The position numbers and the translations under genes were made by a program. From Escherichia coli (lineage in GTDB: Bacteria; Pseudomonadota; Gammaproteobacteria; Enterobacterales; Enterobacteriaceae): a DNA stretch of 64,000 nucleotides. Shown here piece by piece: positions 5,620-6,824 of the stretch (the first letter of the stretch is position 1; each line of letters begins with the position of its first letter). The notes beneath the pieces were generated by a model, which searched no databases, was not told the DNA's origin, and was given only the letters and a program-made list of their open reading frames with translations. The stretch lies in assembly GCF_017348835.2 (NCBI RefSeq), contig NZ_CP071375.1. One strand, given 5' to 3'.

Positions 5620-6824
5620 ATGCAACACAACTCATATCGCCGTTGGATAACCCTCGCGATAATTAGTTTTAGCGGCGGCGTTAGTTTCGACCTGGCTTAT
5701 TTACGTTATATTTATCAAATTCCCATGGCGAAATTTATGGGATTCAGCAATACCGAGATAGGTTTAATAATGAGTACCTTTGGTATTGCGGCTATTATTC
5801 TTTATGCCCCCAGCGGCGTTATTGCCGATAAATTTTCACACCGCAAAATGATTACTTCCGCGATGATCATTACCGGATTACTGGGTCTGTTAATGGCAAC
5901 GTATCCACCGCTGTGGGTAATGCTCTGTATTCAGGTCGCCTTTGCGATAACAACGATTTTAATGCTGTGGTCGGTGTCGATTAAAGCCGCATCGTTGCTT
6001 GGCGATCATAGCGAGCAAGGGAAAATTATGGGCTGGATGGAAGGGCTGCGCGGCGTCGGTGTAATGTCGCTGGCGGTGTTTACCATGTGGGTCTTTTCTC
6101 GCTTTGCACCGGATGACAGCGCCAGCCTGAAAACGGTCATAATTATCTACAGTGTGGTTTACATCTTGTTGGGGATTCTGTGCTGGTTTTTTGTTAGCGA
6201 TAACAACAACCTGTGCAGTGCCAATAACGAAGAAATTTTGGTGTCTTCACCATCTACGCCATTCTGAGTTACTCCACCAACTATCTGACCGAAATGTATG
6301 GCATGTCGCTGGTGGCGGCGAGCTACATGGGGATTGTGATCAACAAAATCTTCCGCGCGCTGTGCGGCCCACTTGGCGGCATTATCACCACCTACAGTAA
6401 AGTGAAATCCCCTACCCGCGTGATCCAAATCCTTTCCGTACTCGGCCTGCTGGCGTTAACTGCCCTGCTCGTCACGAACTCTAACCCGCAATCGGTCGCG
6501 ATGGGGATTGGCCTGATTTTACTGCTGGGATTCACCTGTTACGCCTCACGCGGGCTGTATTGGGCCTGCCCTGGCGAAGCAAGAACACCGTCTTACATTA
6601 TGGGCACCACGGTAGGTATTTGTTCGGTGATAGGATTCCTGCCGGATGTCTTCGTTTACCCAATTATCGGCCACTGGCAAGACACCCTGCCCGCAGCAGA
6701 AGCCTACCGCAATATGTGGCTGATGGGCATGGCGGCGCTCGGCATGGTCATCGTCTTTACCTTTTTGCTGTTCCAAAAAATTCGTACTGCTGATATCGCC
6801 CCCACAACGGCTAACAGCAAGTAA
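5620..6824 (+). pseudogene. yqcE: MFS transporter gene split by an apparent frameshift (N-half 5620..6267 frame 1; C-half continues in frame 0 to 6824)
   Basis: Two adjacent same-strand ORFs (215 aa and 176 aa) both MFS-like; frame 0 is open from 6228 and frame 1 closes at 6267, so a 1-nt indel lies in 6228..6267, most likely in the A3T4 run at 6233-6239. Confidence 0.6.

Follow-up and report, generated by a model that had tools for sequence, protein, structure and literature searches.

What divides the yqcE gene of this Escherichia coli into two reading frames, and could a working transporter still be made from it? Within the window, by which we mean the whole stretch of 64,000 nucleotides that was analysed, yqcE extends from 5620 to 6824 on the plus strand and measures 1205 bp, as compared to 1278 bp for the intact gene. 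The original prediction attributed the break to a single-base indel in a short A3T4 run, left open whether this was a genuine pseudogene or a homopolymer sequencing error, and expected an intact reference to carry one additional A or T at that point. The references carry 73 additional bases instead. In this study, we examine the reading frames, the breakpoints and the distribution of the short allele among sequenced genomes, and conclude with very high confidence that yqcE is here a genuine, clonally inherited loss-of-function allele produced by one 73-bp internal deletion.

Reading frames and the intact transporter

The gene is spread over two frames of the plus strand, as had been described. 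The N-terminal ORF, at 5620..6267, begins with an ATG, ends in a TGA at 6265-6267 and encodes 215 aa, while the second frame can be translated without interruption over 6228-6824 and is closed upstream by a TAA at 6225-6227. Since codons start at 1 mod 3 in the ORF at 5620 and at 0 mod 3 in the ORF at 6294, the two frames lie one base apart. The C-terminal coding remnant, in this other frame, runs from 6237 to 6824 on the plus strand and retains native residues F231-K425 plus the stop codon. Its first conventional start is the ATG at 6294, 27 nt past the stop of the first frame, which opens a 176-aa ORF (6294..6824, plus strand) in the ORF list.

The identification of the disrupted gene as yqcE, encoding a transporter of the major facilitator superfamily (MFS), is borne out by the annotation of the intact alleles as yqcE and by a match of the N-terminal fragment to Pfam MFS_1 (PF07690) at 67.4 bits (cut-off 33.4). 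The hydropathy profile of this fragment agrees with the approximately six transmembrane (TM) segments ascribed to it. Both halves had been called MFS-like, which the Pfam match supports for the N-terminal half; the 176-aa C-terminal ORF has no match of its own in a Pfam profile search, yet compared by eye it reads as residues 250-425 of intact YqcE, with only five TM segments by hydropathy.

The closest intact allele is that of strain DSM 103246 (WP_021577861.1), in which yqcE is a single 425-aa ORF of 1278 bp annotated as a putative MFS transporter. It is the first gene of a yqcE-ygcE pair at the same locus as in the window, and the two share their neighbours, ygcS-ygcU-ygcW on one side and ygcE, a CRISPR array and queE on the other. 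In the intact protein MFS_1 scores 90.9 bits (cut-off 33.4) over residues 22-333, a match that spans the part deleted in the window, and the hydropathy profile, with about 11 clear peaks and a less pronounced one at TM5, fits 12 TM segments. When the PDB was searched by sequence with the intact protein, no chain reached E <= 0.001, so TM7 was mapped by hydropathy, its peak covering residues 222-240.

Motif A of the MFS, which lies between TM2 and TM3, has the consensus G-x3-D-R/K-x-G-R-R/K. YqcE carries a degenerate form of it at residues 66-76, GVIADKFSHRK (G66-x3-D70-K-x3-R75-K76), in which the internal G is replaced by S. The best NCBIfam match of YqcE is to TIGR00893 (anion:cation symporter, D-galactonate transporter) at 65.1 bits, far under the cut-off of 395, and thus gives YqcE no substrate class. 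In the literature searched, yqcE appears in gene lists only, with no function given.

The 73-bp deletion

Alignment of the window gene to the DSM 103246 allele leaves one clean 73-base gap, outside which DNA identity is 99.5%. The junction falls between 6235 and 6236 on the plus strand (GAAGAAA|TTTTGG), as aligned to the intact 1278-bp gene, so the break does lie exactly at the A3T4 run at 6233-6239 where it had been predicted. Intact yqcE reads ...AACGAAGAAA[AACAATCATTCCAGCTTAGCGACATCCTGGCCGTTTTGCGCATCAGCACCACCTGGTATTGCAGCATGGTGAT]TTTTGGTGTC..., the bracketed 73 bases being those missing between the two window positions. The missing segment, AACAATCATTCC...GCATGGTGAT, begins with the middle base of codon 206 (K206) and ends with that of codon 230 (I230); codons 206-230, encoding KQSFQLSDILAVLRISTTWYCSMV(I), are thereby lost, and the frame is moved by one base. 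The 215-aa product accordingly consists of native residues 1-205 followed by a 10-residue out-of-frame tail, ILVSSPSTPF. Given the position of the TM7 hydropathy peak, the deletion cuts away the last part of the central cytoplasmic loop together with about the first half of predicted TM7. The only other amino-acid change relative to DSM 103246 YqcE, compared by eye, is Arg199Cys, from a T at 6214 on the plus strand in place of the C of the intact reference (CGC to TGC); in the stretch aligned across the gap, this SNP is the one further difference.

The AAATTTT run is therefore not a homopolymer that has shrunk. It is a new junction, at which what is left of an A5 run meets the remainder of a T5 run; the two runs stand 63 bases apart in intact yqcE, and alignments find AAATTTT absent from the intact alleles. 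The suggested one-base repair (SANNEENFGVFTIY; NNEENFGVFTIY) restores the frame but not the protein, as about 24 residues of the true SANNEEKQSFQLSDILAVLRISTTWYCSMVIFGVFTIY are missing from it; with 73 bp and codons 206-230 gone, adding one base would not restore YqcE. A one-base indel, whether a real frameshift or a sequencing error, is an understandable reading of the window itself, in which the frames differ by a single base and the break sits at a homopolymer run, and A5 to A4 losses giving a 228-aa product do occur in the neighbouring run of other strains. It is at odds with the 73 extra bases of the intact alleles, which are longer by that number at this point and not by one, and with the absence of A3T4 from intact genes. 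On the same grounds, classification of the locus as a homopolymer (slipped-strand) frameshift pseudogene was ruled out.

The breakpoints offer few clues to their origin. The base before the gap is A and the last deleted base is T, while the first deleted base is A and the base after the gap is T, so the placement of the deletion is unique and there is no microhomology. No direct repeat or microhomology was found at the breakpoints, and the 73-bp segment has only chance matches of 10-11 nt elsewhere in the window. A hairpin in the intact segment is not notable, the fold as single-stranded DNA reaching -13 kcal/mol with z = -0.42 against shuffles. The sole feature of the breakpoints is that one lies within an A5 run and the other within a T5 run. 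An illegitimate, non-homologous event is the probable origin of the deletion. It also appears to be of recent date, because both halves of the gene, compared by eye, are without further lesions and show one amino-acid change only.

Carriers of the junction

The distribution of the allele was examined by megablast, with window positions 5500-6900 as the query and 5426 complete E. coli genomes as the target. The yqcE locus is present in 5078 of the 5426 genomes, always as yqcE followed by ygcE, and at least 80% of the query is covered in 5051. Among the matches listed, the 1401-base query is matched in one piece at 100% only in strains PE164 and F2_81; the other genomes among them match in two pieces spanning 1474 bases (1473 in one genome), as compared to 1401 in the query. 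We also used a junction probe of 54 bases, 27 from each side, which intact yqcE cannot match because it offers no 28-base seed. This probe matches in full in 2 of the 5426 complete genomes, again PE164 and F2_81.

Both carriers came from pigs, PE164 in China and F2_81 in Australia, and PE164 is described as an O108:H9 porcine hybrid aEPEC/ExPEC strain (PMC12233904). Their yqcE is the same allele as that of the window, base for base across the gene. Over 7.4 kb around yqcE no difference separates the window from PE164, and a single SNP, at 8728 and outside the gene, separates it from F2_81. A comparison of 50 kb with PE164 yields 5 SNPs and 1 indel, so the window represents either a distinct genome of the clone or a different version of the assembly. 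The 215-aa product is also present in exactly this form, tail included, in a collection of 15 billion proteins, on 23 contigs. Seven of these were examined; they derive from seven different sequencing runs (Logan assemblies), are 99.97-100% identical to the window, and all contain the identical junction.

The two-frame arrangement is thus genuine and clonal in the assemblies examined, and of the two alternatives originally left open it is the genuine pseudogene that the data uphold, the same junction recurring in two further complete genomes as well as in seven contigs of seven runs. A homopolymer sequencing error fails on this recurrence in independent assemblies, and also because a 73-base loss is not an error of the homopolymer type. 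Taken together with the alignments, the seven independent runs and two further complete genomes leave a one-base indel of either kind extremely unlikely. We are equally disinclined to believe that a local collapse or mis-join during assembly dropped the 73 bases, an explanation to which we assign hardly any probability, since the breakpoints lack a repeat able to cause such a collapse and the junction is shared by assemblies from different laboratories and countries, as well as by the Logan assemblies of the seven runs.

The polarity of the change can be read from the same data. The alternative, an ancestral short form to which other E. coli have added 73 bases by insertion, is contradicted by the rarity of the short junction, which 2 of the 5426 complete genomes contain; the long form is present in all non-carriers examined (28 listed matches plus the alignments). 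In that form yqcE is moreover one 425-aa ORF, with an MFS_1 match that runs through the segment, whereas the short form breaks the frame. An insertion is the least credible of the explanations considered, and its probability is next to nil.

RefSeq had already flagged yqcE as a pseudogene in both complete carriers, where PGAP describes it as 'MFS transporter, frameshifted' (LZG51_RS04840 in PE164, CPH39_RS05025 in F2_81). Only the term 'frameshifted' is given there; what is added here is the cause, a 73-bp deletion.

Consequences, neighbourhood and other losses of yqcE

Compared with the DSM 103246 gene, window yqcE lacks 73 bp (codons 206-230), is frameshifted and specifies a truncated product of 215 aa. 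The deletion removes those codons and moves the frame by one base, such that translation from the normal ATG at 5620 would end after 205 native and 10 foreign residues. The predicted product, half a transporter with about six TM segments, should be unable to form the two-bundle MFS fold. The rest of the coding sequence, comprising about half of TM7 plus TM8-12, lies in the other frame, with no ribosome-binding site evident. With a half-transporter on one side and an out-of-frame remnant on the other, the transport function of YqcE has probably been lost in the deletion allele. The window does not encode twelve TM helices in one polypeptide, residues 206-230 being gone and the frame split, and the loss of half of TM7 together with the split frame makes the locus an MFS pseudogene and not a functional member of the family.

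Could the gene nevertheless function, through a ribosomal -1 frameshift near GAA-ATT-TTG or through separate halves that assemble? Split N6 and C6 fragments of LacY can assemble. The shift needed at yqcE is indeed -1, the junction reads AAATTTT, and an ATG lies at 6294, 27 nt beyond the stop. The heptamer is, however, out of phase for a slippery site of the form X XXY YYZ, the zero-frame codons being GAA ATT TTG, and the junction is an accident of the deletion that is found in one clone only; on both counts it does not qualify as a programmed -1 ribosomal frameshift site. A rejoined product would still be without 24-25 residues, including about half of TM7. As for a second polypeptide, the 176-aa fragment has five TM segments and no Pfam match, and no Shine-Dalgarno-like sequence was seen upstream of the ATG at 6294 on reading the sequence. 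We regard retained function as highly improbable, and return to probable loss of the transporter as the reading of this allele. A further suggestion, in two forms, is that the truncated six-TM half, alone or with a re-initiated C-terminal fragment, has been kept in the porcine O108:H9 clone for some activity, or that loss of YqcE is adaptive in the pig gut, in parallel to the disruption of gudP by IS3 (see below). Even taken jointly, these two possibilities are very unlikely, if somewhat less so than the explanations set aside above.

The gene that follows is ygcE (6851..8329, plus strand), which starts 26 bp downstream of yqcE and encodes an intact 492-aa FGGY-family carbohydrate kinase; ygcS, ygcU and ygcW of the cluster are intact as well. 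About 560 nt of yqcE would go untranslated ahead of ygcE, and from this arrangement it is plausible that the premature stop in yqcE may exert Rho-dependent polarity on ygcE. A promoter and terminator scan of 5300-6900 gave promoter-like sites about as often as expected by chance, and none of its hits lies at the yqcE junction in plus orientation; a minus-strand stem of 5 bp, at 6252-6239, is a weak consensus match. Rfam at gathering thresholds gave no match over window positions 4000-10500.

Several other features of the window were recorded. In the ygcW-yqcE intergenic region, a near-perfect inverted repeat at 5333-5374, with a stem of 16-19 bp, has a T run after it on the minus strand and overlaps ygcW (minus strand) at its 5' (upstream) end, as given by the longest ORF call; it resembles a terminator-like hairpin of the bidirectional kind, or else a regulatory palindrome. 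The CRISPR array lies at approximately 8967-9301, between ygcE and queE, and is annotated as direct_repeat in PE164 and F2_81. Farther along, gudP, which encodes an MFS-type galactarate/glucarate/glycerate transporter, is split by an insertion sequence of the IS3 family over 25638-28304. The C-terminal part of gudP (25638-26435, minus strand) is followed by IS3 orfA (26503-26829, plus strand) and orfB (26829-27716, plus strand), and then by the N-terminal part of gudP (27756-28304, minus strand); the region is annotated in PE164 as in the window. Together with the deletion in yqcE, this makes two inactivated transporter genes within 22 kb in the clone. At approximately 27131-27136, orfB has A5 in the window as compared to A4 in PE164 (GGGGTAAAAAGG vs GGGGTAAAAGG); orfB is intact at 295 aa in the window, so that of PE164 contains either a real frameshift or a homopolymer error.

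Loss of yqcE is not confined to this clone. The 228-aa alleles (GCA_030177065.1, GCA_052952915.1 and SRR024137) have lost one base in the A5 run GAAGAAAAAC, from A5 to A4, a change that is either real or a sequencing error; this is the same run that holds the left breakpoint of the window deletion. Another 228-aa form, seen as protein sequence alone, diverges after ..LGILCWF, at a T6 run. In Shigella flexneri, YqcE (WP_001164550.1) is a 188-aa truncation that occurs on 59 contigs. The 228-aa and 188-aa alleles resemble that of the window in being broken near or before the centre of the protein, and differ from it in that the lesion is not the 73-bp deletion. The 90%-identity cluster of truncated N-terminal halves of YqcE, which contains this 188-aa form and the 228-aa form seen as protein alone, numbers 284 members. 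In addition, 348 of the 5426 complete E. coli genomes have no megablast match to the yqcE stretch (5500-6900), and hence yqcE is not universal in the species.

The lesion in the window is better recorded as a 73-bp deletion, which is irreversible, than as a one-base frameshift, which might revert or be an error, and its junction, GAAGAAA|TTTTGG, could be a simple marker for the clone that includes porcine PE164 (O108:H9) and F2_81. Beyond correct annotation it matters little, being an ordinary lineage-specific inactivation of an uncharacterised transporter gene. The repeated independent truncations, together with the absence of the gene from 348 genomes, suggest that many E. coli can do without yqcE and that it has been inactivated repeatedly and independently.
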